64,000 nt of DNA from Chloroflexia bacterium (GTDB lineage Bacteria; Chloroflexota; Chloroflexia; QHBQ01; JAICKM01), in contig JBPCPV010000029.1 in the NCBI GenBank assembly GCA_050998805.1, forward strand, positions 15,768-79,767. The letters are read 5' to 3'. Numbering within the stretch: position 1 is the stretch's first letter; each line of letters opens with the position of its first letter. A model generated the notes under the pieces. It was given only the letters and a program-made list of their open reading frames with translations, was not told the origin of the DNA and did no database searches. Of the stretch, positions 1-39,474 are shown in pieces. The position numbers and the translations under genes were made by a program.

Positions 1-66
1 TGCTGCTCTTGCGCCCGGCCAGGCCCAGGCCGTTAATGCGCTGTTCGAGCGGTTCCCCGATTATCA

Positions 67-561
67 ATGGGATGTCCAGCAGAGCAGCAGCCTTCGTACC
101 GAGTTGTACAAGGCGCTGCGACCGTTGGTCGGCGCGGCCCACATGATCGAAATGACCAACACCCTTATGAAGTTGCAACGGGTATGAAGGCGGCCCCTCT
201 GCCCACCACCACGCCAGCCAACGGCAGCCGCTGGTACGATGCCGATGATCTACGTTGGGCGGCGGTCCACTGGGCGGCGCGCATCGGAGTACACACCCCG
301 CACATTCACCTGCGCGCCATGCGAACCAAGTGGGCTTCCCTGTCTACGGCGGGCCGCATGACGCTCAACACCGACCTGCTCGGCATACCCACAGACCTGG
401 CCGAGTTTGTGATTGTTCACGAACTGGTTCACCTGCTCGTGCCAAACCACGGCAAGGTGTTCAAGAGCTTCATGGCCGCGTACCTGCCTGATTGGGAAGC
501 GCGCGAGCAGCAGCTACGGACTTACACCGCCCAGCCCGAGAAACCGATAAGAGCACCATAG
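67..561 (+). CDS. YgjP/DUF45-like metal-dependent hydrolase (HExxH motif HELVHL); appears N-terminally short because an in-frame stop at 34-36 prevents upstream extension
   Basis: C-terminal motif ...EFVIVHELVHLLVPNHGKVFKSFMAAYLPDW... typical of DUF45/WLM zincin-like family; first ATG at 67. Confidence 0.5.
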   Translation: MGCPAEQQPSYRVVQGAATVGRRGPHDRNDQHPYEVATGMKAAPLPTTTPANGSRWYDADDLRWAAVHWAARIGVHTPHIHLRAMRTKWASLSTAGRMTLNTDLLGIPTDLAEFVIVHELVHLLVPNHGKVFKSFMAAYLPDWEAREQQLRTYTAQPEKPIRAP

Positions 562-570
562 GAGGCCCAG

Positions 571-1437
571 ATGCTGGCAGGAGCGATTTTCCCGCAGAAC
601 GAGATCGGCAGCGACCCGGTCGTGATCCGTGACTACGCGCAGGCAGCCGAAGGCATGGGCTATAACCACCTGCTTGCCTACGACCATGTCTTGGGAGCGG
701 GCACCGCGAACCGCCCCGGCTGGAGCGGCTACACCGACAAGGATCTTTTCCACGAGCCGTTCGTGCTCTTCGGCTACCTCGCGGGGCTGACCGAGCGGAT
801 CGAGTTCACGAGCGGCGTGATCATCCTGCCGCAGCGTCAGACGGCGCTCGTCGCCAAGCAGGCCGCCGAGGTGGACGTGTTGAGCGGCGGGCGGCTCCGC
901 CTCGGCGTCGGCGTCGGCTGGAACCGCGTCGAGTACCAGGCGCTCGGCCAGGACTTCCGCACACGCGGCAAGAGGTCCGAGGAGCAGATAGCCCTCCTGC
1001 GCCTGCTTTTCAGCCAGGAGTTGGTCACATACGAGGCCGGAGCGGAAAAGGTCCACGAGGCGGGGCTGAACCCGTTGCCGGTCCGCCGCTCGATCCCGAT
1101 CTGGCTCGGCGGCTCCGCAGATGCTCTCCTCCGCCGGGTCGTCGCGCTCGGCGACGGCTGGTTCCCGCAGATGCACCCCGAACCCGAAGGCAGGCTCGCC
1201 GTCGAACACCTGCGCGACCTCGCCCGCGCCGCAGGCCGCGACCCCGCGACCATCGGCATCGAAGCCCGGCTGAACCTCAAAGGCAACAACCTCGACGGCC
1301 TCGCCGAGCAGGCCAGCGCTTGGCAGGCGATCGGCGCGACCCACATCGGCGTCAACACGATGGGTGCGGGCCTCCCCTCGGTCGCCGCCCACACCGAGGC
1401 GCTTGCGCGTGTAAAGCAGATGCTCGACGCCCTCTAG
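571..1437 (+). CDS. LLM-class (luciferase-like) F420-dependent oxidoreductase
   Basis: 288 aa with luciferase-like monooxygenase fold signature (GYNHLLAYDHV..., GGRLRLGVGVGW...), RBS aggaggcccagATG. Confidence 0.75.
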   Translation: MLAGAIFPQNEIGSDPVVIRDYAQAAEGMGYNHLLAYDHVLGAGTANRPGWSGYTDKDLFHEPFVLFGYLAGLTERIEFTSGVIILPQRQTALVAKQAAEVDVLSGGRLRLGVGVGWNRVEYQALGQDFRTRGKRSEEQIALLRLLFSQELVTYEAGAEKVHEAGLNPLPVRRSIPIWLGGSADALLRRVVALGDGWFPQMHPEPEGRLAVEHLRDLARAAGRDPATIGIEARLNLKGNNLDGLAEQASAWQAIGATHIGVNTMGAGLPSVAAHTEALARVKQMLDAL

Positions 1438-1491
1438 CGCGGCACTGGCATCACTCCTGCTATACGATGGCGATACCACAGGAGGGACATA

Positions 1492-1779
1492 TTGCAGAAC
1501 GACGTTCCAGCCATTACTATGTACGGCACCGACTGGTGTTCGGACTCGCTCCGGTCGCGCAGGGTGCTCGAAGGCGAGGAAGTAGATTTCCGCTACGTTG
1601 ACATAGACCGGGACCGTGAGGGCGAAGCCATAGTCATGCGGACCAACCGCGGCAACCGTAGCGTCCCTACTATCTTCTTCCCAGATGGGGCCGTCTTCGT
1701 CGAGCCGGGGGGCGCACTCTTGCGCTCCAAGATCGCTGAACTCCGCGAACTCGGTCTGCTTGATCCTCCGAGAAGTTGA
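1492..1779 (+). CDS. glutaredoxin/NrdH-like small redox protein (mycoredoxin-like, CxxS active site)
   Basis: 95 aa, ...MYGTDWCSDS...VPTIFFPDG... thioredoxin-fold glutaredoxin pattern. Confidence 0.6.
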   Translation: MQNDVPAITMYGTDWCSDSLRSRRVLEGEEVDFRYVDIDRDREGEAIVMRTNRGNRSVPTIFFPDGAVFVEPGGALLRSKIAELRELGLLDPPRS

Positions 1780-1804
1780 CACTGCGGAGGCGTTGCGCTA
1801 TAGT
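1776..1804 (+). promoter_or_regulatory. sigma70-type promoter TTGACA-N17-TATAGT upstream of the Hcp-like gene (-35 overlaps the stop codon of the preceding gene)
   Basis: TTGACA at 1776-1781, 17-nt spacer, TATAGT at 1799-1804; strong RBS aaggagg 6 nt before ATG 1834. Confidence 0.5.
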
Positions 1805-1833
1805 GCCGGTACAACAAGTCAAGGAGGGAAACT

Positions 1834-2319
1834 ATGGCGCATCCTGTCTACCTCGTGCTGAGTGCCGCAGGCACTGAGATCCCAGGCGAAAGTACCGGCG
1901 CAGGCCCCGGCCCCGCAAATGCAATCGAGTGCATCTACTTTGAGCAAGCTGCGACCACCTCGCGCGAGTACGGCGCCGGCATGGCGACCGGTCGGCGCGA
2001 ATACCGCCCGCTCGTCATCCGCAAGCGCATAGACCGCGCCTCGCCCCTGCTCTGGAAGGCGCTCACCGAAGGCCAACCCATCGAGGGCAGCTTCAAGTTC
2101 TTCCGCTCTTCCAGCGAGGGCGTCACCGAGCATTTCTACACCATCGAGATCAAGCAGGCCCGCATCTCCTCCATCCGAGAGTACGTCCCCGACATACTCG
2201 ACCCCGCCACGAAGCATGAGCCTCCCCTGGAAGAGATCAACTTCGTCTTCCACACAAGTTCCTGGACCTACAAAGAGGGCAACATAACTTACCAAGACAC
2301 CTGGATCGCCAGCCCCTAG
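1834..2319 (+). CDS. hcp: Hcp/TssD-like protein (type VI secretion tube protein fold), orphan
   Basis: 161 aa; N-term MAHPVYLVLSAAGTEIPGES, central GRREYRPLVIRKRIDRASPLLWKALTEGQ and FYTIEIKQARISSI match the Hcp1 family pattern (ITKxIDKSSPxLxxAxxxG). Confidence 0.6.
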   Translation: MAHPVYLVLSAAGTEIPGESTGAGPGPANAIECIYFEQAATTSREYGAGMATGRREYRPLVIRKRIDRASPLLWKALTEGQPIEGSFKFFRSSSEGVTEHFYTIEIKQARISSIREYVPDILDPATKHEPPLEEINFVFHTSSWTYKEGNITYQDTWIASP

Positions 2320-2349
2320 ACGAGTTTTGAGTTGTGAGTTGGAGGAAGC

Positions 2350-3705
2350 ATGGCGGACGATTTCGCAGCCTATGATGCCTATATTGAGCGGAACTTCGAC
2401 GGGTTCGTGACCGAGCTGCGGGAGTTTTGCTCGCAGCCGGCGCTTGCCGGACAGAAGATAGGCCTTGCGGAGAGCGGCGATATGGTCCGCGGCAAGATCG
2501 AGGGCCTCGGCGGGCGTGTCGAGTTCGTGCCGGTCGAAGACGGCTCCCCGGTGATCCTCGGCGAGCTGGGCGCGGGCGAGAAGACGCTGCTGCTCTACAA
2601 CCACTACGATGTGCAGCCGCCCGAGCCGCTCGAGCTTTGGGACAGCCCGCCATACGCAGGCGAGGTGCGCGGCGGCCGCTTCTTCGCGCGCGGCGTCGCC
2701 GACGATAAGGGCGACCTGCTCGCCCGCGTGCAGGCGATACGCGCCTATCAAGAGACGGTCGGCCCGCTCCCGTTGCGCCTGCGCTGGCTGATCGAGGGCG
2801 AGGAAGAGATCGGCAGCCCCCACCTCGCACCGGTCGTCCGCGCCCATGCCGATGCCCTGCGCGCCGACTTCTGCGCCTGGGAGGGCGGCGGACGCGACGT
2901 GCATGGCCGTCCCCAGGTCGTTTGCGGCATGAAGGGGATGCTCTACATCGAGCTTCACGCCACGGGGCCGAGTCACGATGTCCACTCCGGCAACGGCGGC
3001 ATCATCCCCAACCCCTCCTGGCGGCTCGTGCAGGCGCTCGCCACGATCAAGGACGCGCACGACAACATCACCCTCGACGGCCTGCCGGACCTGATCGCCG
3101 AGCCGAGCCGGGCCGACCTGGCAGCTGCAGATGCGATGCCTTTTGACGAAGAGGCGCTCGCCCAATTGTACGGGGTGGACCACTGGCAGAGCGACCTGCG
3201 TGGCCGTGACGTGTTGAACACCTTGATGTTCAAGCCGACGGCCAACATAGCCGGCTTCACCAGCGGCTACGGCGGCCCCGGCTCGAAGACTATCGTGCCC
3301 AGCAAGGCCGTCGTCAAAATGGACTTCCGCCTCGTGCCCAACCAGACCCCGGCCAAGATGCTCGACCTGGTGCGTCGCCACCTCGCCCGCCGTGGCTTCA
3401 GCGATGTCGAAGTGGTGGAACTCGGCGGCCTCGAAGTCGGCAAGACGCCGGTGGACAGCCCCTTCGTGCAGACCGCGCTCTCCGTCTGGCACGGCCTGGT
3501 GCCGGGCGGTGCCAACCTCGTTCCGATGACCGGCGGTAGCGGGCCGATCTCGCTGGTAGCCAGCGACCTCGGCATCCCGACCGCGATGGTCTGCGGCCCC
3601 GGCTTCGCAGGCTCTGCGATCCACTCCCCGAACGAGTCGATCAAGCTGGAGGACTACCGGACGACGCTGCGCTACTGGGGGAGGCTGTTTGCACGGCTGG
3701 CGTAG
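2350..3705 (+). CDS. M20-family metallopeptidase / dipeptidase
   Basis: 451 aa; YNHYDVQPPEP...GVADDKG metal-binding motifs of M20/M25/M40 peptidases. Confidence 0.8.
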   Translation: MADDFAAYDAYIERNFDGFVTELREFCSQPALAGQKIGLAESGDMVRGKIEGLGGRVEFVPVEDGSPVILGELGAGEKTLLLYNHYDVQPPEPLELWDSPPYAGEVRGGRFFARGVADDKGDLLARVQAIRAYQETVGPLPLRLRWLIEGEEEIGSPHLAPVVRAHADALRADFCAWEGGGRDVHGRPQVVCGMKGMLYIELHATGPSHDVHSGNGGIIPNPSWRLVQALATIKDAHDNITLDGLPDLIAEPSRADLAAADAMPFDEEALAQLYGVDHWQSDLRGRDVLNTLMFKPTANIAGFTSGYGGPGSKTIVPSKAVVKMDFRLVPNQTPAKMLDLVRRHLARRGFSDVEVVELGGLEVGKTPVDSPFVQTALSVWHGLVPGGANLVPMTGGSGPISLVASDLGIPTAMVCGPGFAGSAIHSPNESIKLEDYRTTLRYWGRLFARLA

Positions 3706-3746
3706 TGCGTATGGGGTGCGGCTGGTAATCGCGAGGGATGATGGAG

Positions 3747-3777
3747 TTTGCACCCCACAGCCCATTTATGGTATAAT
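3747..3777 (+). promoter_or_regulatory. putative rpsF operon promoter with extended -10 (TTTGCA ... TGgTATAAT), followed by a ~130-nt leader
   Basis: TGgTATAAT at 3769-3777; -35-like TTTGCA/TTGCAC 18 nt upstream. Confidence 0.45.
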
Positions 3778-3910
3778 GCCCAACGGCGTATCTTGTGCGC
3801 CGAAAGATATACAAAGATGTTTTGACCTTTCTGCCCCGCGCGGCCCGGAGACATGCACACCCCTCCGTGGCGCGAGCGCAGGGTATGCCCGTAGAAAGGA
3901 GGTGTGTACT

Positions 3911-4213
3911 GTGTCCGATCTGCGCGAATATGAACTGGTCTATATCCTCAAGCCGACTATAGCCGACGATCAGATCCCTGCGTCCGTCGAAAAAGTCAAC
4001 GGCATGGTTTCGGCACGCGGCGGCGAAGTCTACGAAGTGGTGCAAACCCCGCCCTGGGGTAAGCGCCGGCTCGCCTACCCGATCGACCGCAATACAGACG
4101 GCTTCTATGTCCTCAACCACATGCGTATGGACGCTGCGAAGACCGACGATTTCGAGCGTATGCTCAAGATCAACGACGATGTGATGCGTCACATGCTCGT
4201 GCGCGTCAGCTAG
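3911..4213 (+). CDS. rpsF: 30S ribosomal protein S6
   Basis: GTG start after RBS aggaggtgtgtact; VSDLREYELVYILKP...DGFYVLNHM typical S6; the longer ORF in the track is an upstream over-extension. Confidence 0.9.
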   Translation: MSDLREYELVYILKPTIADDQIPASVEKVNGMVSARGGEVYEVVQTPPWGKRRLAYPIDRNTDGFYVLNHMRMDAAKTDDFERMLKINDDVMRHMLVRVS

Positions 4214-4239
4214 CAGCTCGAAAATAGGAGGGCTTTTCC

Positions 4240-4671
4240 ATGGCCGGTCGTGGTCTAAACAAAGTTATGATAATCGGGAACCTCGGCAAAGATCCCGACA
4301 TGAAATATACCAGCAGCGGCAAGCCGATCACAACCTTCTCCGTCGCCGTGGGGCGGGTGACCCGTACCCCCGAAGGCGAGAACAAGGAAGAGACCGAGTG
4401 GTTCCGTGTCGTTGCCTGGGAGAAGCTGGCCGAAACCTGCCACCAGTACCTACACAAAGGCAGCAAGGTCTATATCGAAGGCCGACTGCAAACGCGCACC
4501 TGGAAGGACAACAACGGCCAGGATCACTACATGACCGAAGTGATCGCCAATGAGATGATCATGCTCGACAGCCGCCAGGGGGGCGGCGAGTACCAGGGAG
4601 GCCAGTCGTCACGGGGCGGGCAAGATGTGCCGCCTCCCGATAACGACGTAGACGACGACATCCCATTCTAA
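4240..4671 (+). CDS. ssb: single-stranded DNA-binding protein
   Basis: OB-fold SSB N-terminus, Gly-rich tail ending DDDIPF; canonical rpsF-ssb-rpsR order. Confidence 0.9.
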   Translation: MAGRGLNKVMIIGNLGKDPDMKYTSSGKPITTFSVAVGRVTRTPEGENKEETEWFRVVAWEKLAETCHQYLHKGSKVYIEGRLQTRTWKDNNGQDHYMTEVIANEMIMLDSRQGGGEYQGGQSSRGGQDVPPPDNDVDDDIPF

Positions 4672-4691
4672 CTTAGGAGGAAGAACGATCT

Positions 4692-5090
4692 GTGGATCCA
4701 GTAAGACAAGACGGCCCCAACCGCAATAGCGGCGGGGGCGATGACTCGCAGGGCGGAGGCGGGGGCTACCGCCCATACGGTAGCCGTCCCGAAGGCGGCT
4801 ACCGCAGCGGGCCGAGCGGCCCCGGCGGGCGACCGACCGGCCCGCGCCGCCCACGCTCGAAGGACCGCTTCGTGCCCCGCCGCAAAGTCTGCGGCTTCTG
4901 CGTCGAAAAGCTGCCCTACATTGACTACAAAGACGTGCCGCGCCTGCGGCGCTACCTGTCGGATCGCGGCAAGATCGAGCCACGCCGCAAGACCGGCACC
5001 TGTGCGCGCCACCAGCGCGCTCTGACCGTTGCCCTCAAGCGGGCACGCCACCTCGCGCTGCTGCCCTACTCGGGGCTGCACGCCCGCTAG
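4692..5090 (+). CDS. rpsR: 30S ribosomal protein S18 with Gly/Arg-rich N-terminal extension
   Basis: GTG start after aggaggaag; C-terminal half [45 protein letters not shown] is canonical S18. Confidence 0.85.
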
Positions 5091-5105
5091 AGAGCATACC
5101 GCCAC

Positions 5106-6704
5106 ATGGCTACGAACAAAAAAGGCAACAACCCCGTGCAGGCCCCCCGCCAGATGACGCGGGGCCAGCTCTCGCATCACCAGCGCGAGCTACAGCAGAT
5201 ACGCCGACTCTATATAGGCATGGGCGCGGTCATCCTGCTGATCCTCATTGTCCTCGGCAGCGCGCTGCTTAACGTCTTCGTGCTCCGCCCCAACGAGGAG
5301 ATGGGCAAGGTCAACGGCCAGTCCATCACCCGGAGCATGTACAACAAGTACCGAGCCTGGGTAGTCTTCAACCAGATGCGTACCTACGATTTCTACACCC
5401 AGCAAACAACCGACCAGACCCAGATCACCCAGTACCAGACCCAGATCACGTCTCTACAGCAAGAACTCCAGAATCTAGACAACTGGCCGACGATAGATTC
5501 GGCAACTCTTGGGCAGATCGTGGAGAACCTGATCATCGAGCAGAAGGCACCCTCTCTTCAGGTGAGCGTCTCACAAGCCGATATTCTGGCCGACGCGCAA
5601 AACAACTTCTTGCCGACGCCGACAGCCGTGCCCGGCCCGACCGACACGCCCGGCCCGACCAATACGCCCGGCCCACCGACGCCGACCGGCACCCCGCCGA
5701 CCGCGACCACCGCACCCACCGGCACCCCGCCGACCAGCACCCCGCCCCCGTCGCGCACGCCGACCCACACCCCGACGCCCGGCCCCAGCCCGACCTCCAG
5801 CCGCACGCCGACGATCACGCCCACGCCTCTGCCGGTGCCTGGCGCGCAACAGACGGCAGTTTCCACCTACGACAGCTTCATCGGTGCGCTCTCAGGTAGC
5901 TCCAAGCCGGGAACCGGTTACTGCGCGCTCGGCTGCCCCAGCCTCTCGGTTGACGATTACCTGAACCTCGTCGCAAAGCCCCAGACGCTCTCGAAGAAGA
6001 TCACCGATAAGCTCGGCGAGTCGATCCCGAAAACGCAAGACGAGGTCCACGTCCAACATATCCTCGTGAAGACCGAGGCCGAGGCTAAGGACATCAAGGC
6101 GAAGCTCGACAAGGGCGCGAACTTCGCGGACCTCGCCTCCCAGTACTCGATAGACACCTCGAACAAAGACACCGGAGGCGACCTCGGCTGGTTCCTGCCG
6201 ACCGCAAAGGGCGGGCCGATGGTCAAGGAGTTCTCCGACGCGGCCTTCCTACTCACCAAGCCCGGCCAGATCAGCGACCCGGTACACAGCCAATTCGGCT
6301 GGCACATCATCCGCCTCGTCGAGCGCGCCTCACGCGCGTTGACCGACCAGGAACTCACCACCGCCAAGACAAAGGCATACGACGACTGGCTCCAGAAGCA
6401 GAAAGACAGCTCCACCATCACCAACCTCAAGGTGGCGCTGCCGACGCCGACGCCGACCCCAGGCCCGGCGGTCTTGCCGACCGACGTGCCTTCCGTCCCG
6501 ATAACGAACACCGGCACACTCACCGGCACCGGCACGACAACCGGCACCGGCACACTGACGAACACCGGCACACTGACGAACACCGGCACCATCACCGGCA
6601 CGGGCCTCCCGCCCGCCCCGACCCGCGCCGTCACGCCCCCGGCCTCCCCTCCACCTCAGGCGACCACATCGCCCCAGCCTGGAGCCACAGCCACAACAAA
6701 GTAA
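5106..6704 (+). CDS. membrane-anchored PpiC/parvulin-type peptidyl-prolyl cis-trans isomerase (SurA/PrsA-like) with Pro/Thr-rich linkers
   Basis: N-terminal TM helix, parvulin domain (HVQHILVKTEAEAK...GGDLGWF...GWHIIRL), long PT-rich low-complexity segments. Confidence 0.75.
   Translation: MATNKKGNNPVQAPRQMTRGQLSHHQRELQQIRRLYIGMGAVILLILIVLGSALLNVFVLRPNEEMGKVNGQSITRSMYNKYRAWVVFNQMRTYDFYTQQTTDQTQITQYQTQITSLQQELQNLDNWPTIDSATLGQIVENLIIEQKAPSLQVSVSQADILADAQNNFLPTPTAVPGPTDTPGPTNTPGPPTPTGTPPTATTAPTGTPPTSTPPPSRTPTHTPTPGPSPTSSRTPTITPTPLPVPGAQQTAVSTYDSFIGALSGSSKPGTGYCALGCPSLSVDDYLNLVAKPQTLSKKITDKLGESIPKTQDEVHVQHILVKTEAEAKDIKAKLDKGANFADLASQYSIDTSNKDTGGDLGWFLPTAKGGPMVKEFSDAAFLLTKPGQISDPVHSQFGWHIIRLVERASRALTDQELTTAKTKAYDDWLQKQKDSSTITNLKVALPTPTPTPGPAVLPTDVPSVPITNTGTLTGTGTTTGTGTLTNTGTLTNTGTITGTGLPPAPTRAVTPPASPPPQATTSPQPGATATTK
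6487..6600 (+). repeat. in-frame 18-bp coding tandem repeat (caccggcacactgacgaa-like units) encoding TGTLTN repeats at the C-terminus of the PPIase
   Basis: consecutive near-identical 18-mers visible in the sequence. Confidence 0.6.
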
Positions 6705-20123: not shown

Positions 20124-20218
20124 GGGGGTGGTTGGGTCCCGGTGGGCTCCGCAGTCTTCAAAACTGTCCGGGTGTCGCTAAGAACGGCATCGGTGGGTTC
20201 GACTCCCATGCACTCCCG
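20124..20218 (+). tRNA. selC: selenocysteine tRNA candidate (anticodon UCA), 95 nt
   Basis: hand-folded: 8-nt acceptor 20124-20131 pairs with 20210-20217 (7 of 8, one G-U); 6-bp D-stem with 4-nt loop (20134-20149); anticodon stem GCAGT/ACTGT with loop CTTCAAA (anticodon TCA 20158-20160); long variable arm (7-bp stem, 20171-20191); T-arm GTGGG-TTCGACT-CCCAT; discriminator G 20218. Confidence 0.6.
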
Positions 20219-20248
20219 CCCCCTAAGAACAATGCAAAGGACAAGAAA

Positions 20249-21016
20249 ATGAATGAGGAAGAAAAGCATTTCGACTATGAGGGGCTGGGCAAGAAACTGC
20301 TGGCATACTGCCGGAAGTATTCTATACCCCCGCAGCACATCTTCGATATCCTCAATGACCAAAAAGTGATCCCCATGCTGCGCGGCAAAGGGTTGGAATA
20401 CAGCCTTAGTCTAGTTCTACCTACAGTCCTCGATGCGGCTGCCTGGCAAGTAAACAAACTGAACCGCAATGCCCAGCCGGGCATACCAGACGAGGATCTC
20501 GAAGTTATTCACAAGCGCACTGGGATCCGGCTCGTGGTCGAGTCTAAAAGTGCAGTGCGCGGCTCAATGACGCTGGGCACTCGTTCTCGGACCCACAAAG
20601 TGCCTCACTTCAAGGTCAAATGCCATCGGAGCCGGAGCAACAAGAAGCTCGAAACAAATGACCGCTACGCGGAGACGGCTTTTGATGTGCTGGTGAGCAA
20701 TCCCACAAACGCTCTCTATGCTGGCGCAACAATCGGGGAAGAACTGGAGCTAATAGACGATGCTGCGCTTATCGAAGCACTCATGCAGTACTACAATGCA
20801 GCAGGTACGTCAACTCTAGTGGAAGCTGCTGCTGCTGATTGGCGCTTCGTGCTCCCGCCTCGAATTGCTGTGGACGGGTTCATCCCGCGGACACCGGTTG
20901 TTCTGCTGACCGGCGACCCGAACTGGCAACCGCTAAATCAGCTGGAAACCCAACTAACGGCAGTTGTACAGCAACAGGCTGATGCGCGACGGCGGCCGGG
21001 TCATAGCTCAAAATAA
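20249..21016 (+). CDS. putative type II restriction endonuclease (PD-(D/E)xK-like) partner of the Dam-family MTase
   Basis: 256 aa in a low-GC segment, convergent with and overlapping the MTase 3' end; candidate motif ...PDEDLEV...VVESK; no strong family match recognisable by eye. Confidence 0.4.
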   Translation: MNEEEKHFDYEGLGKKLLAYCRKYSIPPQHIFDILNDQKVIPMLRGKGLEYSLSLVLPTVLDAAAWQVNKLNRNAQPGIPDEDLEVIHKRTGIRLVVESKSAVRGSMTLGTRSRTHKVPHFKVKCHRSRSNKKLETNDRYAETAFDVLVSNPTNALYAGATIGEELELIDDAALIEALMQYYNAAGTSTLVEAAAADWRFVLPPRIAVDGFIPRTPVVLLTGDPNWQPLNQLETQLTAVVQQQADARRRPGHSSK

Positions 21017-21848
21017 ACACTTCCCGCCCCATGTAACGTTTGCCTCGGTCGGTCGTCTTTTTGGTCTGATCATCCGTCCGGTTGATCGTGTAGTTCCACT
21101 CTTTGTCCAGCATGGCCGCCGCCCACTGATACAAGGCGCGGACTTCGGGGCTGTTGTCATACGTAAGCAGGAAGGAGAGGCGGTGGCTGTGCGTGTGCAA
21201 AACCTCAGCCAGACGCAGATGATCTGCGCGTGTGAAGCTGTAAGTGTAAAACTTGTCCTGATCCGCATTAAAGTAGGGCGGGTCTACGAACAAGAACGCT
21301 CCGTCAGGAGCCTGCTCGATGGTTTGGGCGAAATCCGCACAGGTGATCTGCACATCCTGTAACTTGGCCGAGCAGCGCCGTAGATGACCCGGCCAATTCT
21401 TCGGCTGCATACTGTAAATGTCACCATACCCCCAATAGCAGTTAGGCGCGTTCATAATCCCCGAATAGCTGGTCCGGTTAAGATAGTACCACCGAAAGGC
21501 GCGTTCAAGTTCGTTCGTCGGCCTATACACATTCTTGTAGTAAGTATGATTTTCTTTACTGGCCCCGATCCCATCCAGCAAGGCAATCAATTCCTCCACA
21601 TGATCCCTTATGTGGATATAGCAATTGACGAGTTCGGGATCTGCGTCGTTTAGGAGGTTTGTTGCAGCCTTGCTTTTGGCGAAAAAGATCGAACCGCCCC
21701 CGGCAAATGGCTCTGCATAGTAGCTGTGCGGAATCATTTGCTCCAAAATTAGCTTACGAGCGTAGAACTTACCGCCCGCGTAGCGAAACGGCGAATTGAT
21801 AGGCACCCTATCAACGGTTGCTCCCTTAGGCTGGGTTCCGATCGGCAT
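20880..21848 (-). CDS. Dam-family (D12 class) N6-adenine DNA methyltransferase
   Basis: FRYAGGK, EPFAGGGS (SAM binding) and DPPY catalytic motif; the GC-rich C-terminal ~40 codons are probably read-through past the real C-terminus. Confidence 0.8.
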   Translation of the reverse strand: MPIGTQPKGATVDRVPINSPFRYAGGKFYARKLILEQMIPHSYYAEPFAGGGSIFFAKSKAATNLLNDADPELVNCYIHIRDHVEELIALLDGIGASKENHTYYKNVYRPTNELERAFRWYYLNRTSYSGIMNAPNCYWGYGDIYSMQPKNWPGHLRRCSAKLQDVQITCADFAQTIEQAPDGAFLFVDPPYFNADQDKFYTYSFTRADHLRLAEVLHTHSHRLSFLLTYDNSPEVRALYQWAAAMLDKEWNYTINRTDDQTKKTTDRGKRYMGREVFILSYDPAAVAHQPVAVQLPLVGFPADLAVASSGRRSAEQPVSAG

Positions 21849-21871
21849 CGTTGTGTACTCCCGGACGATCT

Positions 21872-22135
21872 TTAGCGTTGAGTACTTGTAGCGTTAGCAG
21901 GCTCGATTACCTCGCCCAAACTGTAAACTGGGCTAAGTTCCTTTAGCACGGAAGCAAAATCCTGGCGCTGTGTCTCGTTATTGAGCAACTCTATGAAGTC
22001 CTCGAAACTCAGCACAACAGCCTGCGGTGTGCCGCGCCGTTTGACAATGTAGCGCGTGCGCGTACGCACCACATCATCGAGGACCTGCCCGAAGTTGTTC
22101 TGTGCATCAGTTGAGCTGACAGTCTTGGTAGCCAT
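21872..22135 (-). CDS. Phd/YefM-family antitoxin-like protein (orphan, no toxin gene adjacent)
   Basis: 87 aa; TDAQNNFGQVLDDVV...IVKRRGTPQAVVLSFEDFIELLN matches the YefM/Phd pattern; sits directly upstream of the MTase. Confidence 0.65.
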   Translation of the reverse strand: MATKTVSSTDAQNNFGQVLDDVVRTRTRYIVKRRGTPQAVVLSFEDFIELLNNETQRQDFASVLKELSPVYSLGEVIEPANATSTQR

Positions 22136-22225
22136 CCATCTTATCCAATCTAGCTAACTTAGCTATATTATAGCAGACGTTAGGCGTTCTGTCAATACCT
22201 TTCTCCCGGCAAAACAGCTCGCCCT

Positions 22226-23773
22226 CTACTTGTGTACCGGCGTGAAGAGGTCGGCCAGCCGGTGCGCTGTGAGATTTCTCCCTTCCGACACGATCAGCCA
22301 ATCACCGGCGATTGCCACTCTCCTATAGCCGCCAGCCCTCGGTCCTAACAGCCGCATCGGAATGCGATCAGTCAGTTTCATTCCCCAGACTTCTCCATTG
22401 AGACCCCCAGCGTAAGCCGTCCAAACGACGGTGTTACCACGGATCGCTGCGCTGGATCCCTTCCCGCCGGGCAGAGGCGTTGTAGCCCCGGTGTCGAGGT
22501 TGATGAGCAGAGTAGGGTTGGGAGAGTCAGCCCACACCAAATAATGGCCCGAGAGTATGGAAGACCCGAAAAGAGCGCACTGGCCTGTCGTTTGCTGCGC
22601 GGCGGTTTGTACCTGGCCGGTCGAGCGCCTTAGGTAATGGAGGTCGCAATCCAGTCCAGCACCGTATTCAGTCCAGGCAAAGTATTCATCACTGACAGCA
22701 ATGCCGTATCCAGCTGGCCGAGCAGAAGCGACGACGCTGGTCGTATTGGTATCAAGGTCTTTCATAACCAAGCGGGTATTTGGTCCGCTGTCCTCAAACC
22801 ACGCGACGGTTCTGCCGACGATAGTAGGGGCGAAATCCCCCAAAGCGATGGTGAAGGTAATCCCGGTGTCGAGGTCTTCCCCCAGGACGGCACCATTTCC
22901 ATCTGCCCAGACGATTGTAGAGCCTGAAACCGAGTAAGAGAGATATACAACCGACCGGTTAGCAGCTATGGGTTTGGTGTGCTGGCTATTACGAACGTCT
23001 ACAGCGTAGAGTTTCTCATTCGGATGCTCGCTGTATGGAGAGTCTTCTATCCAAGCCAAATAGGTGTTCGACCCGACAGGCCCGCCCTGTGCCAGCCCCT
23101 GTTCCGCCGGCGGCGGAAGCGTCACCGTGCCGTAGCGTGTGCGCTGCTGGTACGTGCCGAGCTGGGTCAGCAGCACTTCGTATGGCGTGCCGGCGTTTTC
23201 GGGGTGTAGCTCGAACGCGGCGCGCTCGAAATATTGTACGGTGTAGGGCTTGTTGTCGAGGTCGCTGACCTCGGTGAACTCATCGGAGATCGGGTAGCCC
23301 TGCTGGGCGAGTCCGCCGTGAGCCTCCCAGTAGCGCCGGAAGAAGCCGCCGACGGTGTGGCCAGTCTGTGGGAAGTAGCGCGGTGCCTCGGACGATGCGT
23401 GCTGGTCGGGAGCGCCGTCGGGACCGTAGTACTCTCGGTAGCGGTAGTCGCCAAGCAGCGACGGCAGTACCTCGAACGGGGTGCCTGCGTTCTCAGGGTG
23501 GGATTCGAGGACGGCGCGCTCGAAGTACTGGACGGTGTAAGGCTGTCCGTCAGTATCCGAGGTTTCGATGAGGGGGTCGCTGATGGGGTAGCCGAGTTGG
23601 GTGAGGCCGCCGTGGGACTGCCAGAAGGAGAGGAAGCTGCCTGAGACTGTGTGGCCGGTTTCGGGGAAGGTGCGGGAGGCAGGTTGGGCCGTAGCCGGAG
23701 GGACCGAGGCCGGTGGGAGCGCCAACAGCGCGAGCAGCAGCAACGTTCTCGTACGGCCAAAGCAAAGAGCCAT
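22226..23773 (-). CDS. secreted protein with two LGFP-like repeats and a C-terminal beta-propeller-like repeat region
   Basis: signal peptide MALCFGRTRTLLLLALLAL (RBS aaggagg); duplicated ~70-aa unit ...FWQSHGGLTQLGYPISD...YTVQYFERAVLE...; start set at the signal-peptide Met rather than the longer track ORF. Confidence 0.5.
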   Translation of the reverse strand: MALCFGRTRTLLLLALLALPPASVPPATAQPASRTFPETGHTVSGSFLSFWQSHGGLTQLGYPISDPLIETSDTDGQPYTVQYFERAVLESHPENAGTPFEVLPSLLGDYRYREYYGPDGAPDQHASSEAPRYFPQTGHTVGGFFRRYWEAHGGLAQQGYPISDEFTEVSDLDNKPYTVQYFERAAFELHPENAGTPYEVLLTQLGTYQQRTRYGTVTLPPPAEQGLAQGGPVGSNTYLAWIEDSPYSEHPNEKLYAVDVRNSQHTKPIAANRSVVYLSYSVSGSTIVWADGNGAVLGEDLDTGITFTIALGDFAPTIVGRTVAWFEDSGPNTRLVMKDLDTNTTSVVASARPAGYGIAVSDEYFAWTEYGAGLDCDLHYLRRSTGQVQTAAQQTTGQCALFGSSILSGHYLVWADSPNPTLLINLDTGATTPLPGGKGSSAAIRGNTVVWTAYAGGLNGEVWGMKLTDRIPMRLLGPRAGGYRRVAIAGDWLIVSEGRNLTAHRLADLFTPVHK

Positions 23774-23825
23774 ATCCAACCGAGGGCCTCCTTGCCTAAT
23801 AATACCCCCATAGCCGCACGCGGGT

Positions 23826-24740
23826 TCACAGCCCCGCGAACAGATCGCGCTCCCGCTTGCGTCCAGACGGCGGCAGGGCACGGGTGAACTGCTCGCGGCC
23901 CATCAGCAGGCGGCGCATCGGGCGCGGCAGCCGCATCAACCCCGCCATGCCCCCCAACTGGCTCGCGTGACAGAGGCGAGCGCGGTCCATCTGCTCGGTC
24001 CACGCGCCGCAGGCGACGACCGCCGTCACCGGCGTCGCCTCCTCCACCACGCGCACGAGGTCCACATCTGCGTTCTCTCCGAACCGTCGCGGGTCGCGCC
24101 TCAGCAGGCGCATCATGGCGACTGAGAGCCGAAGGAAGCCTGTGCCGAGCGTCGAGTAGTAGAGCTTGGCTGGTCGCCAGGGGGATAGTCCGGCGGCGAT
24201 CTGTTCGGGATAGAGCACGGGGTCTGCGGCGGCGTCGAAGGCCGGGCCGACAGCCTGGTGGATATAGATGTGGTCCGGGTGGCCGTAGCCGCCGTATGGA
24301 GGGAAGGTGAGCACGACCTGCGGCCGCAGCGCGCGTATCAGCGCGACCACCTGCCCCGTGACCTGCCGGAGAGGTGCCTGCACCAGCGCGGCAGGGTTGG
24401 CGTTGTCGGGAGAACCCGGCATGCCCGAGTCGCGGTAGCCGAGGTAATGCACCGCCCGCAGCCCTAGCGCCCGCGCCGCGCAGTCCAGCTCCGCCGTCCG
24501 CAGCGCGCCTATGTCGGCATGGCCTTCGAGGAAGCCGGGTGCCACGGTGCCGCACTCGCCGCGTGTGGCGCAAGCGTAATGCACGTCCACGCCCTCCGCC
24601 GCATAGCGGGCGATGGTCCCCGCGTTGCCGAAGCTCTCGTCGTCAGGGTGCGCGTACACGACGAGCAGCCTCAGCTCCGCTGCCGGTTCGCCGAACCAAT
24701 GCGATTCGATGCCGTACTCTGAGAAGTCGGGTCTGTTCAT
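23826..24740 (-). CDS. PIG-L/LmbE-family N-acetylglucosaminyl deacetylase
   Basis: VVYAHPDDESFG and HPDH motifs of the PIG-L family. Confidence 0.75.
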   Translation of the reverse strand: MNRPDFSEYGIESHWFGEPAAELRLLVVYAHPDDESFGNAGTIARYAAEGVDVHYACATRGECGTVAPGFLEGHADIGALRTAELDCAARALGLRAVHYLGYRDSGMPGSPDNANPAALVQAPLRQVTGQVVALIRALRPQVVLTFPPYGGYGHPDHIYIHQAVGPAFDAAADPVLYPEQIAAGLSPWRPAKLYYSTLGTGFLRLSVAMMRLLRRDPRRFGENADVDLVRVVEEATPVTAVVACGAWTEQMDRARLCHASQLGGMAGLMRLPRPMRRLLMGREQFTRALPPSGRKRERDLFAGL

Positions 24741-28493: not shown

Positions 28494-29990
28494 ATGGCTA
28501 AGATATACATCGGCAACTATGAAGCCGCCGATAAGGGTTTGTTGGAGGCGCTTCGTCGCTTGGGAGACTCGTATCACGTTTTTGTCGAGTTTCAGATACC
28601 GAACCCGCGCGGGCAGCGCCAGGTTGACTTCCTGGTTATCCGAGAGGACCAGGCGCGGCCCTGCATCTTCATGCTCGAGGTGAAGAATGAGCGCCACCGG
28701 CTACGCGGCACGATCAACGGGCCGTGGGAGTATGAAGAGACGGCGGGCGCGTGGCGGCCGCTGCCTGCGTCGAACCCGCGCGACCAGAACCCGATTCAAC
28801 AGGCGTATAACACCGCCCGCGCCATGCAGGCGTGGTTGAGTAGTATGCGCTCGCTGATCCAGGACGGCGACAACCTCTGGCCCGACATCCCCACGGTCTT
28901 CCCGCGCCTTGTCCTGCCGGTTGCCCACGGCGACAATCAGTTGCAGACCGACAGCTTCACCTGGCGCTTCGACAGCTATGAGCGTTGTGTGGAGAGCCTG
29001 AACAACTTCGTCGCGCGCGACCCGGTCTACCTGCGGCCGAGCGAGATCGAGCGGATGGCACATTACCTCGGCGTGCAGCGTCAGCCGGACGCCCCGGCGG
29101 TCGAGGAGCCGGAGATCGGCGAATGGCTGCGGACCCACTACGAGAAGCTCATGGACGAGATCACAGCCTTGCGGCAGGAGGTGCGAGAGCTACGCGCGCT
29201 GGTGAGCAACCGCCCTCCGGCCATTCAGATGCATCAGCGCGTCATCGGCCACTCCGCGCGGTTGTTCGGCCCGCCGCCGGAGCCGACCAGCGACCTGGGC
29301 CAGGCTTACAGGGCGCTCGCCGATGTGGTACACGACCTGGCTGCCGTAGGCCGCAAACTGGTCTTTCCGAACGTGCAGGAGGGTCTGTGGCGGCGGCTTG
29401 GCGAGTTCAACGTCGAGCAGTACGGCTTTTTCAAGTTCAAGGAGTTTCTCCAAGAGGCTGAGAGACGCGGTGTCGTCAGCCTCAGCATGGTGGACGGCGT
29501 GGACTATGTGTCGCTGCCCGGTGAGCAGCCGCAGGCGCTTCCGGGCAGCGCGCCGATCAGCCTCGAAGACCTCACGCCCCAGGAGCGCAACCTCTTCTTG
29601 GAGTCCACCGCCGAGCTGGAGGCGCGTAGCGCCTACATGATCCGCTCGTTCATTGCTCGGCACCTGACTGTGGCCGCGATCTTGCCGCTGCCGATGTATG
29701 AGATACGCGCGCTGGTGAACGATGCCGTGAACCGAGGGCTGTTCCATCGGGGCACGCGCCCCTTCCGCCACCCGACCACCGGTGAGATGCAGAGCCTCGA
29801 AACCCTGACTCTGGACCGCAACCACCCCTGGGTGGCCGAGGCGCTCGGCGAACAGCCGTTGCCCGACGCCGAGAACGAGGACGCCGAACAGGATGCGAAC
29901 CTGCGGCTCGACTCCGGTGGCTGGGACGCTGATTACGGAGCGGAGAACGGCCATGTCCGCGACATCTACGCCGACCCGCACGCCTTCTAG
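28494..29990 (+). CDS. NERD (nuclease-related domain) protein with C-terminal OST-HTH/LOTUS-like RNA-binding domain
   Basis: N-term YHVFVEFQIPNPRGQRQVDFLVIREDQARPCIFMLEVKN fits NERD; central coiled coil; C-terminal ...LWRRLGEFNVEQYGFFKFKEFLQEAERRGVVSL resembles OST-HTH. Confidence 0.55.
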   Translation: MAKIYIGNYEAADKGLLEALRRLGDSYHVFVEFQIPNPRGQRQVDFLVIREDQARPCIFMLEVKNERHRLRGTINGPWEYEETAGAWRPLPASNPRDQNPIQQAYNTARAMQAWLSSMRSLIQDGDNLWPDIPTVFPRLVLPVAHGDNQLQTDSFTWRFDSYERCVESLNNFVARDPVYLRPSEIERMAHYLGVQRQPDAPAVEEPEIGEWLRTHYEKLMDEITALRQEVRELRALVSNRPPAIQMHQRVIGHSARLFGPPPEPTSDLGQAYRALADVVHDLAAVGRKLVFPNVQEGLWRRLGEFNVEQYGFFKFKEFLQEAERRGVVSLSMVDGVDYVSLPGEQPQALPGSAPISLEDLTPQERNLFLESTAELEARSAYMIRSFIARHLTVAAILPLPMYEIRALVNDAVNRGLFHRGTRPFRHPTTGEMQSLETLTLDRNHPWVAEALGEQPLPDAENEDAEQDANLRLDSGGWDADYGAENGHVRDIYADPHAF

Positions 29991-29998
29991 CCCGTCCG

Positions 29999-30784
29999 AT
30001 GCTGCGAACCGTAACGGCGACCCGCTATGACACGCCCCTGCGGGAGGGCGGCTCGCTTCCGGCCATCGTCGAAGCCGACGACGACGGGATGTATGTCGTC
30101 AAGTTCCGGGGTGCCGGACAAGGCCCGAAGGCGCTTATCGCGGAATTGGTCGCCGGAGAAATCGGGCGCGCCATCGGCCTGCCCGTGCCTGAGATCGTCT
30201 TTGTGGAGTTGGACCCGGTGCTGGGACGAACCGAGCCTGACCCCGAGATACAGTCGCTTATGGAGGCGAGCGCGGGGCTGAACATCGGCCTCGACTACCT
30301 CCCGGGGTCGCGGATCTTCGACCCGCTGACCGCGCCCCGGCCCGATGCCGCGCTCGCCTCGGCGGTCGTCTGGCTCGACGCCTACGTTACCAACGTGGAC
30401 CGCACCGCCCGGAACACAAACATGCTGCTCTGGCACAACCAGCTCTGGCTGATCGACCACGGTGCCGCTCTCTACTTCCACCACCGGACAGGCTGGTGGA
30501 CGGACTACGCCGAGCGCAGCCGTAGCCGCTTCCCTGCCATCCGCGAGCATGTGCTACTGCCCTTCGCCGATGCGCTCGAGGAGGCCGACCTGGTGCTGCG
30601 TTCGATGCTGACGCTGGATAAGATCGCCGAGATCGTCGCCGACATACCCGGCTCATGGCTCGATCACGACTCGCCGCCCGACCGGAGCGAGCATCGTGCT
30701 GCATATGTCGGCTACCTGACGGATCGGCTAGCCTCGGCCGGCTTCGTGGAGGAGGCTATAGGTGCCCGCGAAAGCATCGTTTAA
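29999..30784 (+). CDS. HipA-like kinase-fold protein (short, C-terminal HipA-type catalytic region)
   Basis: 261 aa; VKFRGAGQGPKAL..., VTNVDRTARNTNMLLW..LWLIDHGAALYF resembles the HipA_C catalytic loop/DxG region. Confidence 0.5.
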   Translation: MLRTVTATRYDTPLREGGSLPAIVEADDDGMYVVKFRGAGQGPKALIAELVAGEIGRAIGLPVPEIVFVELDPVLGRTEPDPEIQSLMEASAGLNIGLDYLPGSRIFDPLTAPRPDAALASAVVWLDAYVTNVDRTARNTNMLLWHNQLWLIDHGAALYFHHRTGWWTDYAERSRSRFPAIREHVLLPFADALEEADLVLRSMLTLDKIAEIVADIPGSWLDHDSPPDRSEHRAAYVGYLTDRLASAGFVEEAIGARESIV

Positions 30785-31166
30785 CTACGCCATAATCCGC
30801 GTAGTGCCGCGTGTAGAACGTGGCGAGTTCGCGAACGTCGGGGCGATCTTGTTCTGCCGGACGCGCCGCTTCCTGGAAGCCCGGATCGATGCGGACCTTC
30901 GGCGGCTGGCCGCGCTCGACCCCGATCTGGACCTCGCTGAAGTCGCCAGGCAGCTGGAGGCGATCCCGCGGGTCTGCGCCGGGGGGGATGCCGCAGGGCC
31001 GATCGGGCGGCTTCCACAGGCCGAACGCTTCGGCTGGCTCACCGCGCCGCGCAGCACAGTGATCCAGACATCGCCGGTCCATTCCGGCATCTGCGATGAC
31101 CCGGCAGCCGCCCTTGAGCGGCTCATAGAGACAATGGTTAAGAGACCAACAGATAAGGAGATATAA
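30762..31166 (+). CDS. DUF3037 domain protein
   Basis: 134 aa; NYAIIRVVPRVERGEFANVGAILFCR matches the DUF3037 N-terminal signature; overlaps the upstream gene by 23 nt. Confidence 0.6.
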   Translation: MPAKASFNYAIIRVVPRVERGEFANVGAILFCRTRRFLEARIDADLRRLAALDPDLDLAEVARQLEAIPRVCAGGDAAGPIGRLPQAERFGWLTAPRSTVIQTSPVHSGICDDPAAALERLIETMVKRPTDKEI

Positions 31167-38349: not shown

Positions 38350-38419
38350 GTGCTATTTATATCGCAGGTCGGCTTGTATTGTCAACGGCAGGCCGCGAGC
38401 GGGAAGGGGCAGCCCTTGT

Positions 38420-38449
38420 TTGACAGACGCCTACACCCAGCGCTATACT
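38420..38449 (+). promoter_or_regulatory. putative promoter TTGACA-N18-TATACT for the CvpA/CAP gene
   Basis: -35 38420-38425, -10 38444-38449; implies the real CDS starts downstream of the track ORF start. Confidence 0.45.
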
Positions 38450-38511
38450 GGCCCAACGAACGCGGAGTAGCTGATTGGCGTTGGGGTTGTTTGGGGGCTT
38501 TCTTGGCTGGA

Positions 38512-39474
38512 TTGAACTGGGTAGATTGGGCGCTGCTCGTGATGGTCGGCCTGACGGCAGCGGCAGCCACCGGCCGGGGCTTTTTGCAGGTCTCCGCGGG
38601 GTTGTTCGGCTTCTTGTTGAGCCTGGGCACCGCCCTCCTCTTCACCACGCCTGTCGCCGCATGGCTCGCCGGACACACAGGCTTGCCCGAACCCTGGACC
38701 CCGCCTGTCGCCTTCTTCGCCAGCTGGCTCGGCACCCAGATAGTCTACACCGCCGTCTCGCGGATACTGCTCGGGCGCAGCCTCTACAGGGCCGCCCGTT
38801 CGCCGCTGAACAGGTGGCTCGCGCTGTTGCCCGGCGCGCTCCAGGGTCTGCTCGTCGGCGGGCTGCTGCTGACGCTGCTCGCGCTCGCGCCGATCCCCGG
38901 CCTGCCCCACCAGGCGATCCTCGACTCGGAGATCGGGGGGCGGCTGGTGAGCGCGGCAGTGGACCTGGAGCGCCCGCTCGAAACCATCTTCGGCCCTGCC
39001 CTCCAGCAGACGCTCGGCTTCCTCACCGTCAAGCCCGAGATCGGGCCGGGGGAGACGGTTGCTCTCAAGTTCGAGGTGAGCGCGCCGACGACCGACGCGG
39101 ACGCCGAAGAGCAGATGTTGAGCATGGTCAACGCGGAGCGCAGCAAGGCCGGTCTCCCGCCGTTGGCGATGGACCCACCGCTGCGCGACTTGGCGCGGGC
39201 GCACGGAGCCGACATGTTCCGGCAGGGCTACTTTTCGCACACTGGGCGCGATGGCCGCTCTCCGTTCGACCGTATGCGCGACGCAAACATCACCTACACC
39301 GCCGCAGGTGAGAACCTCGCGCTCGCGATCAGCACGGCGCGCGCCCACCAGGGGCTTATGAACAGCCCCGGCCACCGCGCGAACATCCTCAACCCCGCCT
39401 TCCGCCGAGTCGGCATCGGCGTGATGGACGGCGGCATCTACGGCAAGATGTTCGTCCAGGAGTTCACCGATTAG
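38512..39474 (+). CDS. CvpA-family membrane protein fused to a C-terminal CAP (SCP/PR1-like) domain
   Basis: N-term LNWVDWALLVMVGL (CvpA-like start, TTG), C-term YFSHT...NSPGHRANIL...FRRVGIG CAP motifs; the 38350 track start is probably an over-extension. Confidence 0.55.
   Translation: MNWVDWALLVMVGLTAAAATGRGFLQVSAGLFGFLLSLGTALLFTTPVAAWLAGHTGLPEPWTPPVAFFASWLGTQIVYTAVSRILLGRSLYRAARSPLNRWLALLPGALQGLLVGGLLLTLLALAPIPGLPHQAILDSEIGGRLVSAAVDLERPLETIFGPALQQTLGFLTVKPEIGPGETVALKFEVSAPTTDADAEEQMLSMVNAERSKAGLPPLAMDPPLRDLARAHGADMFRQGYFSHTGRDGRSPFDRMRDANITYTAAGENLALAISTARAHQGLMNSPGHRANILNPAFRRVGIGVMDGGIYGKMFVQEFTD

Follow-up and report, generated by a model that had tools for sequence, protein, structure and literature searches.

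A solitary hcp gene of a Chloroflexia bacterium and the small Chloroflexota clade of orphan Hcp proteins to which it belongs

Here we analysed a 64-kb stretch of DNA from a Chloroflexia bacterium (64,000 nucleotides of contig JBPCPV010000029.1, assembly GCA_050998805.1; hereafter the window) with a focus on the single hcp (tssD) gene near its start. Hcp is treated as a hallmark of type VI secretion systems (T6SS). The window protein proved to be a genuine Hcp. It belongs to a small clade, apparently specific to Chloroflexota, in which every hcp is a single gene among housekeeping genes, preceded by a sigma-70 promoter close to consensus and by a strong ribosome-binding site (RBS). Based on sequence comparisons, we tentatively favour the reading, which we hold well short of conviction, that these genes may encode a selectively kept, well-expressed stand-alone Hcp ring protein acting outside the canonical T6SS.

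The window protein is an Hcp

The gene and its product can be described as follows:
1834-2319, plus strand: hcp (tssD), 161 aa, ATG start, intact open reading frame (ORF)

The ORF cannot be extended upstream, and its product has neither a signal peptide nor a C-terminal extension. It matches Pfam family PF05638 (T6SS_HCP) with an E-value of 9.4e-20 and 71.6 bits (cut-off 23.5), the Pfam scan returning no other family, and TIGR03344 (TssD) with an E-value of 2.4e-28 and 99.1 bits (cut-off 58.9). The best solved relative is the Hcp chain in 5URW, a model of the T6SS sheath and tube of Myxococcus xanthus in the extended state, matched over residues 1-158 (E 8.7e-48, ~57% identity). In the AlphaFold2 monomer model (mean pLDDT 89, pTM 0.83) a single helix at residues 69-78 is accompanied otherwise by strands, and the top Foldseek matches of this model in the PDB are all Hcp proteins (TM 0.75-0.88). 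On the strength of the Pfam and TIGRFAM scores, the 5URW match and the predicted fold, we therefore conclude that the protein is Hcp and not a look-alike. This bears out the original prediction, made from the DNA letters alone, of a 161-aa protein with the Hcp pattern; the same prediction had named a different fold as the outcome that would overturn it, and both profile and fold searches instead place the protein in the Hcp fold, a compact beta-barrel flanked by one helix and bearing a long beta-hairpin.

Family membership as such is already known. In GenBank the protein is MGI8587814.1 from a Chloroflexia bacterium metagenome-assembled genome (MAG) under the name "type VI secretion system tube protein TssD", and automatic pipelines have given the TssD label also to a member of the 158-aa lineage described below.

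A clade of orphan hcp genes

Relatives were sought among 5.8 billion proteins. The nearest ones form one cluster at 96% identity, after which identity drops to 60% or less; these more distant proteins are 163-aa Hcps, the named ones coming from Myxococcota, 'Candidatus Eisenbacteria' and 'Deltaproteobacteria' MAGs. Two more clusters have derived motifs such as TTSREYGAGMATGRREY and SPLLWKAL in common with the window Hcp:
P0046: 158 aa, includes MDQ2809171.1 from 'Chloroflexota bacterium'
P0044: 159 aa, the third lineage of the clade

A profile built from the three lineages and run against the 5.8 billion proteins gave the clade 292-314 bits, and no other protein exceeded 230 bits. The same profile gave no separation against 50%-identity representatives, among which the clade members are merged with 163-aa Hcps. 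In all, the clade amounts to 14 sequences in three clusters at 90% identity; it is carried by the MAG with MGI8587814.1 and by assemblies GCA_030155865.1, GCA_038228295.1, GCA_030155745.1 and GCA_030853735.1. Neighbour-joining with 67 sequences groups the three lineages as monophyletic with a bootstrap of 0.82 (1.00 for each sub-lineage), and they sit on a long stem: their mean distance to Hcps embedded in T6SS clusters is 0.69-0.94, compared with 0.31 among the cluster-embedded Hcps themselves. In the tree, the clade branches from Myxococcota-type T6SS-i tube proteins.

Genomic context sets the clade apart from these proteins. Most relatives at 53-58% identity, from metagenomes and genomes alike, sit in tssB-tssC-hcp-tssE-tssF-tssG-clpV clusters, and the Myxococcota-type hcp lies mostly between tssC and tssE in complete clusters, whereas the window hcp is alone. 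T6SS genes are absent from the flanks of clade hcp genes in the window (62 kb downstream), on contig L014 (10 kb on each side) and on contigs L016, L069 and L070. The surroundings of hcp on these contigs are:
L014 (74-kb contig, GCA_038228295.1): leuS, methyltransferase, PIG-L, glutaredoxin, cupredoxin-like, 2-oxoacid dehydrogenase E1 and glycogen phosphorylase genes
L016: surroundings that resemble those of L014
L069: a response regulator gene on one side and purN-purM on the other
L070: an M20 gene following hcp, as in the window

Orphan hcp genes are also found in T6SS-positive bacteria. Those of Myxococcota (L031-L033 and L036) are likewise single, distant from any T6SS cluster and equipped with a promoter of their own. 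They are nonetheless close to cluster-embedded Hcps in sequence (0.32 versus 0.31), in contrast to the Chloroflexota clade with its 0.69-0.94 and its housekeeping neighbours. The known orphan hcp genes come from T6SS-bearing genomes and frequently have vgrG, PAAR or effector genes linked to them (PMC4793230).

Two further searches add little. A scan of genome contigs for Hcp returned 8 loci, none from Chloroflexota, but it needed exact 8-residue patterns and says little on absence. A search with Myxococcota TssC for sheath proteins under a Chloroflexota name gave 7,978 matches; the named proteins among the best 120 are all from Myxococcota or 'Deltaproteobacteria', which is uninformative.

As a separate observation, a number of Hcp-domain proteins (P0090-P0095, P0099, P0100, P0106, L065:9827-10459 and L064) are subfamily relatives with N-terminal extensions. 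Some of these extensions resemble Sec signal peptides or membrane anchors (e.g. P0093, which is HRK23000.1 from a Fimbriimonadaceae MAG), and P0090 and P0095 have twin-arginine-like signals after a coiled coil. No T6SS gene lies within 10 kb on either side of the Hcp-domain gene on L065. The N-terminally extended proteins may be Hcp domains exported in the absence of a T6SS.

No secretion, tail or injection genes around hcp

About 50 ORFs that cover the window were scanned against Pfam. The scan revealed no TssA/B/C/E/F/G/K/L/M, ClpV, VgrG or PAAR, and no phage sheath, phage tube, baseplate or contractile injection system (CIS) family. Nor did the window show any tblastn match to the T6SS proteins of a Myxococcus eversor locus (TssL, M, A, B, C, E, F, G and ClpV, all confirmed by Pfam). 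The earlier statement that TssB/C/VgrG/ClpV-like genes are missing from the 64 kb is thus upheld. The TXSScan definition of T6SS-i lists 14 core components with a quorum of 11 (PMC4793230); 1 of the 14 is present in the window, and the count is the same for the flanks on L014, L016, L069 and L070. What the window does encode includes rpsF-ssb-rpsR, rpsP-rimM, IMPDH, a thiolase and an aldehyde dehydrogenase, together with ABC and MFS transporters, a GH38 mannosidase, and SLH and PMT_2 envelope proteins.

These data also bear on the idea that the protein is an extra or replacement tube, or an adaptor, for the extracellular CIS (eCIS)-like cytoplasmic injection systems of Chloroflexota. Hcp and CIS tube proteins are of common ancestry. 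Among Chloroflexota, Roseiflexus and others produce CIS particles in the cytoplasm (PMC12998442), so that a system built on a related tube-and-sheath principle (clade IId in Roseiflexus) exists in the same phylum. However, neither the window nor the related loci contain a sheath, baseplate J, gp25-like or other baseplate gene of an eCIS, a cytoplasmic CIS or a phage tail. The Roseiflexus CIS is made of different gene families clustered with a tube of their own, none of which is near the window hcp, and CIS clusters of this kind generally encode their own tube proteins from another family. Since the window Hcp is moreover closest to T6SS-i Hcp rather than to CIS tubes, we consider such a role quite improbable.

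Rewritten and retained positions

In family, fold and length (nearly equal), the window Hcp agrees with the Myxococcota-type T6SS-i Hcps represented by 5URW and by Myxococcus eversor (L007), with 53-60% identity over the full length; the hosts differ, being Chloroflexia in one case and Myxococcota in the other. The window Hcp retains the hexamer-forming helix, the core residues, the single cysteine of the IEC motif and the GxATGRRxYxP hairpin. Across the clade, some 50 of the positions that cluster-embedded Hcps conserve have stayed the same, among them much of the subunit-packing helix, which in Hcp packs on the adjacent subunit within the ring (PMC3925092). At the same time, all clade members have replacements at 21 positions where conservation among 27 cluster-embedded Hcps is 85% or more. 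The replacements are distributed as follows:
N-terminal strand: E3, T4, H6 and K10
Loop 22-30: TQxSLGRxxS turned into a Gly/Pro/Ala-rich segment
Single sites: A43S, S48A, Q56E and K68R
Loop RPNPTGDGTTEQ, 91-100: rewritten and two residues shorter in the window lineage
Further sites: G109A, G150N and H153Y/Q, with a different C-terminal tail as well

The location of some of these changes can be related to Hcp1 of enteroaggregative Escherichia coli (EAEC), which is the reference for the stacking of tubes and the structure of which (4HKH) is superimposable on the window model (TM 0.82-0.88) and aligns over residues 1-157 with few small gaps. In the HMMER alignment, residues 91-96 of the window Hcp lie opposite loop L4,5 of EAEC Hcp1 (Ile91-Gly96). 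Together with the C-terminus (Ser158), this loop makes the head-to-tail interface between hexamers: N93W/S158W abolish tubes and G96C/S158C cross-link them (PMC3925092). Of the interface residues N93, G96 and S158, which fall in the rewritten segment of the clade, G96 alone is kept. Both head-to-tail stacking elements are thus rewritten relative to cluster-embedded relatives, a change in sequence that by itself may be compatible with stacking. Overall, the pattern suggests that the ring has been kept, whereas its stacking and outer surfaces may have been remodelled.

Promoter conservation and selection

The expression signals ahead of hcp are:
1776-1804, plus strand: sigma-70-type promoter, with -35 TTGACA at 1776-1781, a 17-nt spacer and -10 TATAGT at 1799-1804
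1821-1828, plus strand: Shine-Dalgarno AAGGAGGG, 5 nt before the hcp ATG, as read from the sequence

The promoter agrees with the consensus at 11 of 12 positions and is the best promoter-like site within positions 1-6000, its -35 hexamer overlapping the stop codon (1777-1779) of a glutaredoxin-like gene upstream. The pattern TTGACA-N16-18-TATASTG occurs twice in the window and not at all in 100 shuffles. The Hcps on L014, L016, L063 and L069 are 51-55% identical to the window Hcp, and the spacers upstream of the five genes can be aligned in no more than two blocks. The first, (C)TTGACAC-N16/17-GCTATA(C/G)TGC, is common to all five; the second is the RBS with the start codon, AAGGGGGA being kept on L014, L016 and L063 at the spot of the window Shine-Dalgarno. 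The TTGACAC/TATA block is thus a phylogenetic footprint of the predicted hcp promoter. The near-consensus TTGACA-N17-TATAGT promoter and strong RBS that had been proposed for the window gene are present there, and the promoter is conserved across three lineages.

The second match to the promoter pattern in the window, at 38420-38450, lies within the 5' part of ORF 38350-39474, which encodes Colicin V production and CAP domains and the true start of which may be further downstream.

A different kind of regularity concerns the assemblies themselves. On six independent metagenome contigs with clade-type hcp (L016, L017, L018, L063, L070 and L071; first 13-192 bases), the sequence breaks off 12-191 bases upstream of the start codon, either within the promoter region or directly in front of it. 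Such a pattern is indicative of strain-level variability or of an assembly-breaking repeat immediately upstream of the clade hcp.

Selection was assessed as the ratio of nonsynonymous to synonymous substitution rates (dN/dS) by the Nei-Gojobori method. L001-L005 represent the same strain as the window (100% identical), so L070, L071 and the 158-aa lineage were used. For the window hcp we obtained 0.070 and 0.069 versus L070 and L071, respectively, and for hcp of the 158-aa lineage 0.026-0.095; the adjoining M20 gene gave 0.116. The closest pairs of cluster-embedded Hcps gave 0.065-0.2, the distant pairs being unusable because in Myxococcota a GC content at third codon positions (GC3) above 0.9 compresses dS. 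Since the clade values overlap those of the closest cluster-embedded pairs, the intact hcp is selectively maintained about as strongly as a working tube gene, and we claim neither relaxed nor tightened constraint.

A lone gene without partners, in a phylum without a known T6SS, might also be viewed as a functionless relic of a horizontally transferred T6SS fragment that is decaying or drifting neutrally. This we regard as highly improbable. The frame is intact in three lineages, dN/dS (0.03-0.09) is below that of the adjoining peptidase, the promoter and RBS are conserved amid a diverged spacer, and both GC3 and codon usage are like those of the host.

Assembly and host

The source of the window is a MAG, which raises the question of a mis-binned contig or of a chimera joining a proteobacterial or myxobacterial hcp to Chloroflexia DNA. 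The glutaredoxin-hcp-M20 segment is, however, 100% identical at the DNA level on five contigs of the same strain from independent assemblies (four Logan runs plus a JGI metagenome). The contig around the gene also carries rpsF-ssb-rpsR, rpsP-rimM and further host genes of like composition, and diverged relatives retain both the glutaredoxin-hcp order and the promoter. Six window proteins are present verbatim in NCBI under the Chloroflexia bacterium MAG, on a contig of 99,688 bp. The GC3 of hcp (0.80) is similar to that of adjoining genes, and its codon usage is consistent with the host. It is also near that of ribosomal-protein genes (rank 5 of 51), which is weak evidence given a reference of just ~480 codons. 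Because of the identical DNA in five assemblies and the host-like GC3 and codon usage, mis-assembly or recent transfer of hcp is very unlikely, and an artefact of the kind outlined above is the least credible of the explanations we considered. Even when taken jointly, a relic, an assembly artefact and a CIS role are unlikely to account for the gene.

A stand-alone ring or the tube of a machine encoded elsewhere

Two readings then have to be weighed. According to the one that we tentatively prefer, a Chloroflexota ancestor would have taken over hcp alone from a T6SS-i cluster, or would have kept nothing of such a cluster but hcp, with vertical inheritance of the gene from then on. The clade Hcp most likely still forms a six-membered ring, because its hydrophobic core is conserved, as is the helix that holds the subunits together. 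Rewriting has affected loop L4,5 and the C-terminus, through which rings stack into a tube, as well as the N-terminal strand and the 22-30 loop, and because of this a role outside the canonical T6SS seems most likely. By analogy with Hcp and T6SS effectors, the product might be an abundant cytoplasmic ring that binds or chaperones small proteins in its lumen, possibly in functional coupling with the adjoining thiol-redox protein. We infer ring formation, expression and the glutaredoxin link of the window Hcp from sequence, and the T6SS-independent step is the weakest of the proposal.

The other reading, which we consider a substantial possibility, is that the protein is the ordinary tube subunit of a T6SS, or of an envelope-adapted T6SS-like apparatus, encoded elsewhere in the genome without an hcp of its own. 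The protein, after all, has the full length and canonical form of an Hcp and shares 57% identity with one from a T6SS. A more specific form of this idea, in which presumably single-membrane Chloroflexota run a T6SS-like contractile machine with the diverged Hcp as its tube, is in our view rather unlikely.

Several observations tip us toward the stand-alone ring. All clade members are orphans: in three lineages there is no adjoining T6SS gene, vgrG, PAAR or effector-immunity pair, and no cluster-embedded copy of the clade type was found among the 5.8 billion proteins or in the metagenome scan. The stem of the clade is at least twice the spread of all cluster-embedded relatives, and surfaces invariant in the family are rewritten. 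To our knowledge, no T6SS has been characterised in Chloroflexota, and literature searches for either T6SS or Hcp in Chloroflexi/Chloroflexota turned up no study devoted to the subject. The envelope of the phylum is described as monoderm (PMC12488501), and in a survey monoderm genomes were without T6SS loci (PMC4793230).

On the other hand, a number of points weigh against a stand-alone role and most of them speak for a tube subunit. We know of no organism for which a cytoplasmic Hcp has been shown to act independently of a T6SS. The absence of T6SS genes covers no more than the 64-kb window and the flanks of its relatives. In T6SS-positive genomes hcp is commonly encoded away from the main locus, TssD/Hcp and VgrG lying elsewhere in 35% of T6SS-encoding replicons (PMC4793230). 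Purifying selection on hcp is strong and comparable with that on the closest cluster-embedded pairs. The consensus promoter fits a high-copy protein and equally suits a tube subunit made in thousands of copies. A preprint reports soil Chloroflexota MAGs with tube, sheath and spike matches to T6SS hidden Markov models (10.1101/2024.12.19.629468). Finally, the rewritten stacking loop could equally reflect co-adaptation to a divergent set of partners. Of the original prediction, Hcp identity, isolation within 64 kb and the promoter are thus borne out, and both branches of its functional proposal, a stand-alone structural or chaperone homolog and part of a distant apparatus, are kept.

Genes adjoining hcp

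The genes on either side of hcp are:
1492-1779, plus strand: glutaredoxin-like gene, 95 aa, TTG start after AGGAGGG; PF00462 at 6.3e-10
2350-3705, plus strand: M20/M25/M40 metallopeptidase gene, PF01546 and PF07687, own RBS GGAGGAAG, 30 nt 3' of hcp

These Pfam matches agree with the position first assigned to hcp, between a glutaredoxin-like gene and an M20 peptidase. The window glutaredoxin matches TIGR02200 (mycoredoxin) with an E-value of 7.4e-16 and 58.3 bits, under the cut-off of 89.5. Its active-site motif is C-x-x-S (WCSDS, C-S-D-S), and the glutaredoxin on L014 has C-P-D-S; neither is C-x-x-C. The protein thus looks mycoredoxin-like and monothiol while scoring below the threshold for TIGR02200 membership. 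On L014 and L015, a glutaredoxin 66% identical to that of the window lies directly upstream of hcp in the same orientation. The pairing is therefore kept though the Hcps are 54% identical and the remaining neighbours are different. This recurrent adjacency suggests functional coupling of glutaredoxin and hcp, the alternative being retention by descent. PIG-L is the family of the deacetylases of mycothiol and bacillithiol biosynthesis. In the 158-aa lineage, a PIG-L family deacetylase gene (L014:7901-9124) lies directly upstream of the glutaredoxin gene, which, given the role of the family, hints that the L014 glutaredoxin works with a low-molecular-weight thiol. The PIG-L gene of the window is located at 23826-24740, ~20 kb away.

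On the other side, a terminator-like site was looked for in the 30-nt gap between hcp and the M20 gene and none was found, so the two genes are probably co-transcribed. Their adjacency is kept on L070 and not in other Hcp lineages. We also considered the M20 peptidase as an effector carried by Hcp. The effectors known in the Hcp lumen are small, far below the 451 aa of this peptidase. As a 451-aa enzyme of housekeeping type, with an adjacency to hcp that is unconserved in other lineages, it was rejected.

Upstream of the glutaredoxin, a gene with a YgjP-like metallopeptidase domain occupies positions 1-561 of the window. Beyond the window start, contig L002 (1-1692) encodes the C-terminal portion of HsdR from a type I restriction system, 1.5 kb of it beyond the window, which puts hcp ~1.3 kb from a restriction-modification locus.

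Other features of the window

A few further features are worth recording. After a tRNA-Sec gene (20124-20220; identified with ARAGORN and Rfam) comes a stretch of low GC content (52-57% versus 65% for the window; region 20124-23900) with a D12-class adenine methyltransferase gene (20883-21848, minus strand) and a gene for a 551-aa protein that has a weak beta-propeller repeat match. The stretch looks like an island inserted beside the tRNA-Sec gene. After a gene for a NERD-domain protein (28494-29990) come two overlapping genes, one for a HipA_2-type kinase (29999-30784), the other for a DUF3037 protein (30762-31166); this set (28494-31166) may be a toxin-antitoxin or defence-like module. Finally, a 392-aa ORF at 43016-44194 (minus strand) is located in a stretch of atypical composition, with a GC content of 72% and a GC skew of +0.28, and matches no Pfam or NCBIfam family.

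Significance

In literature searches we found no description of a Chloroflexota-restricted, all-orphan hcp clade, nor of its conserved promoter, glutaredoxin partner or rewritten stacking interface. Relative to the original prediction, the additions are the existing TssD label, the small and apparently Chloroflexota-specific orphan clade, its origin from Myxococcota-type T6SS-i Hcp and the recurrent linkage to glutaredoxin. Both surviving readings, a stand-alone ring and the tube of a machine encoded elsewhere, would be new. If a T6SS-like machine exists, it would be the first characterised in Chloroflexota and in a monoderm envelope; the presence of a T6SS would widen the range of the system to include a phylum whose envelope is described as monoderm, with a bearing on how different envelopes are crossed. 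If there is no T6SS in these bacteria, the clade would be a caution against calling T6SS from hcp matches in metagenomes, and carrier genomes without a T6SS would offer a natural experiment on what a lone Hcp ring does. Should the stand-alone reading be true, this would be the first case of an Hcp domesticated to act in the cytoplasm independently of a T6SS.

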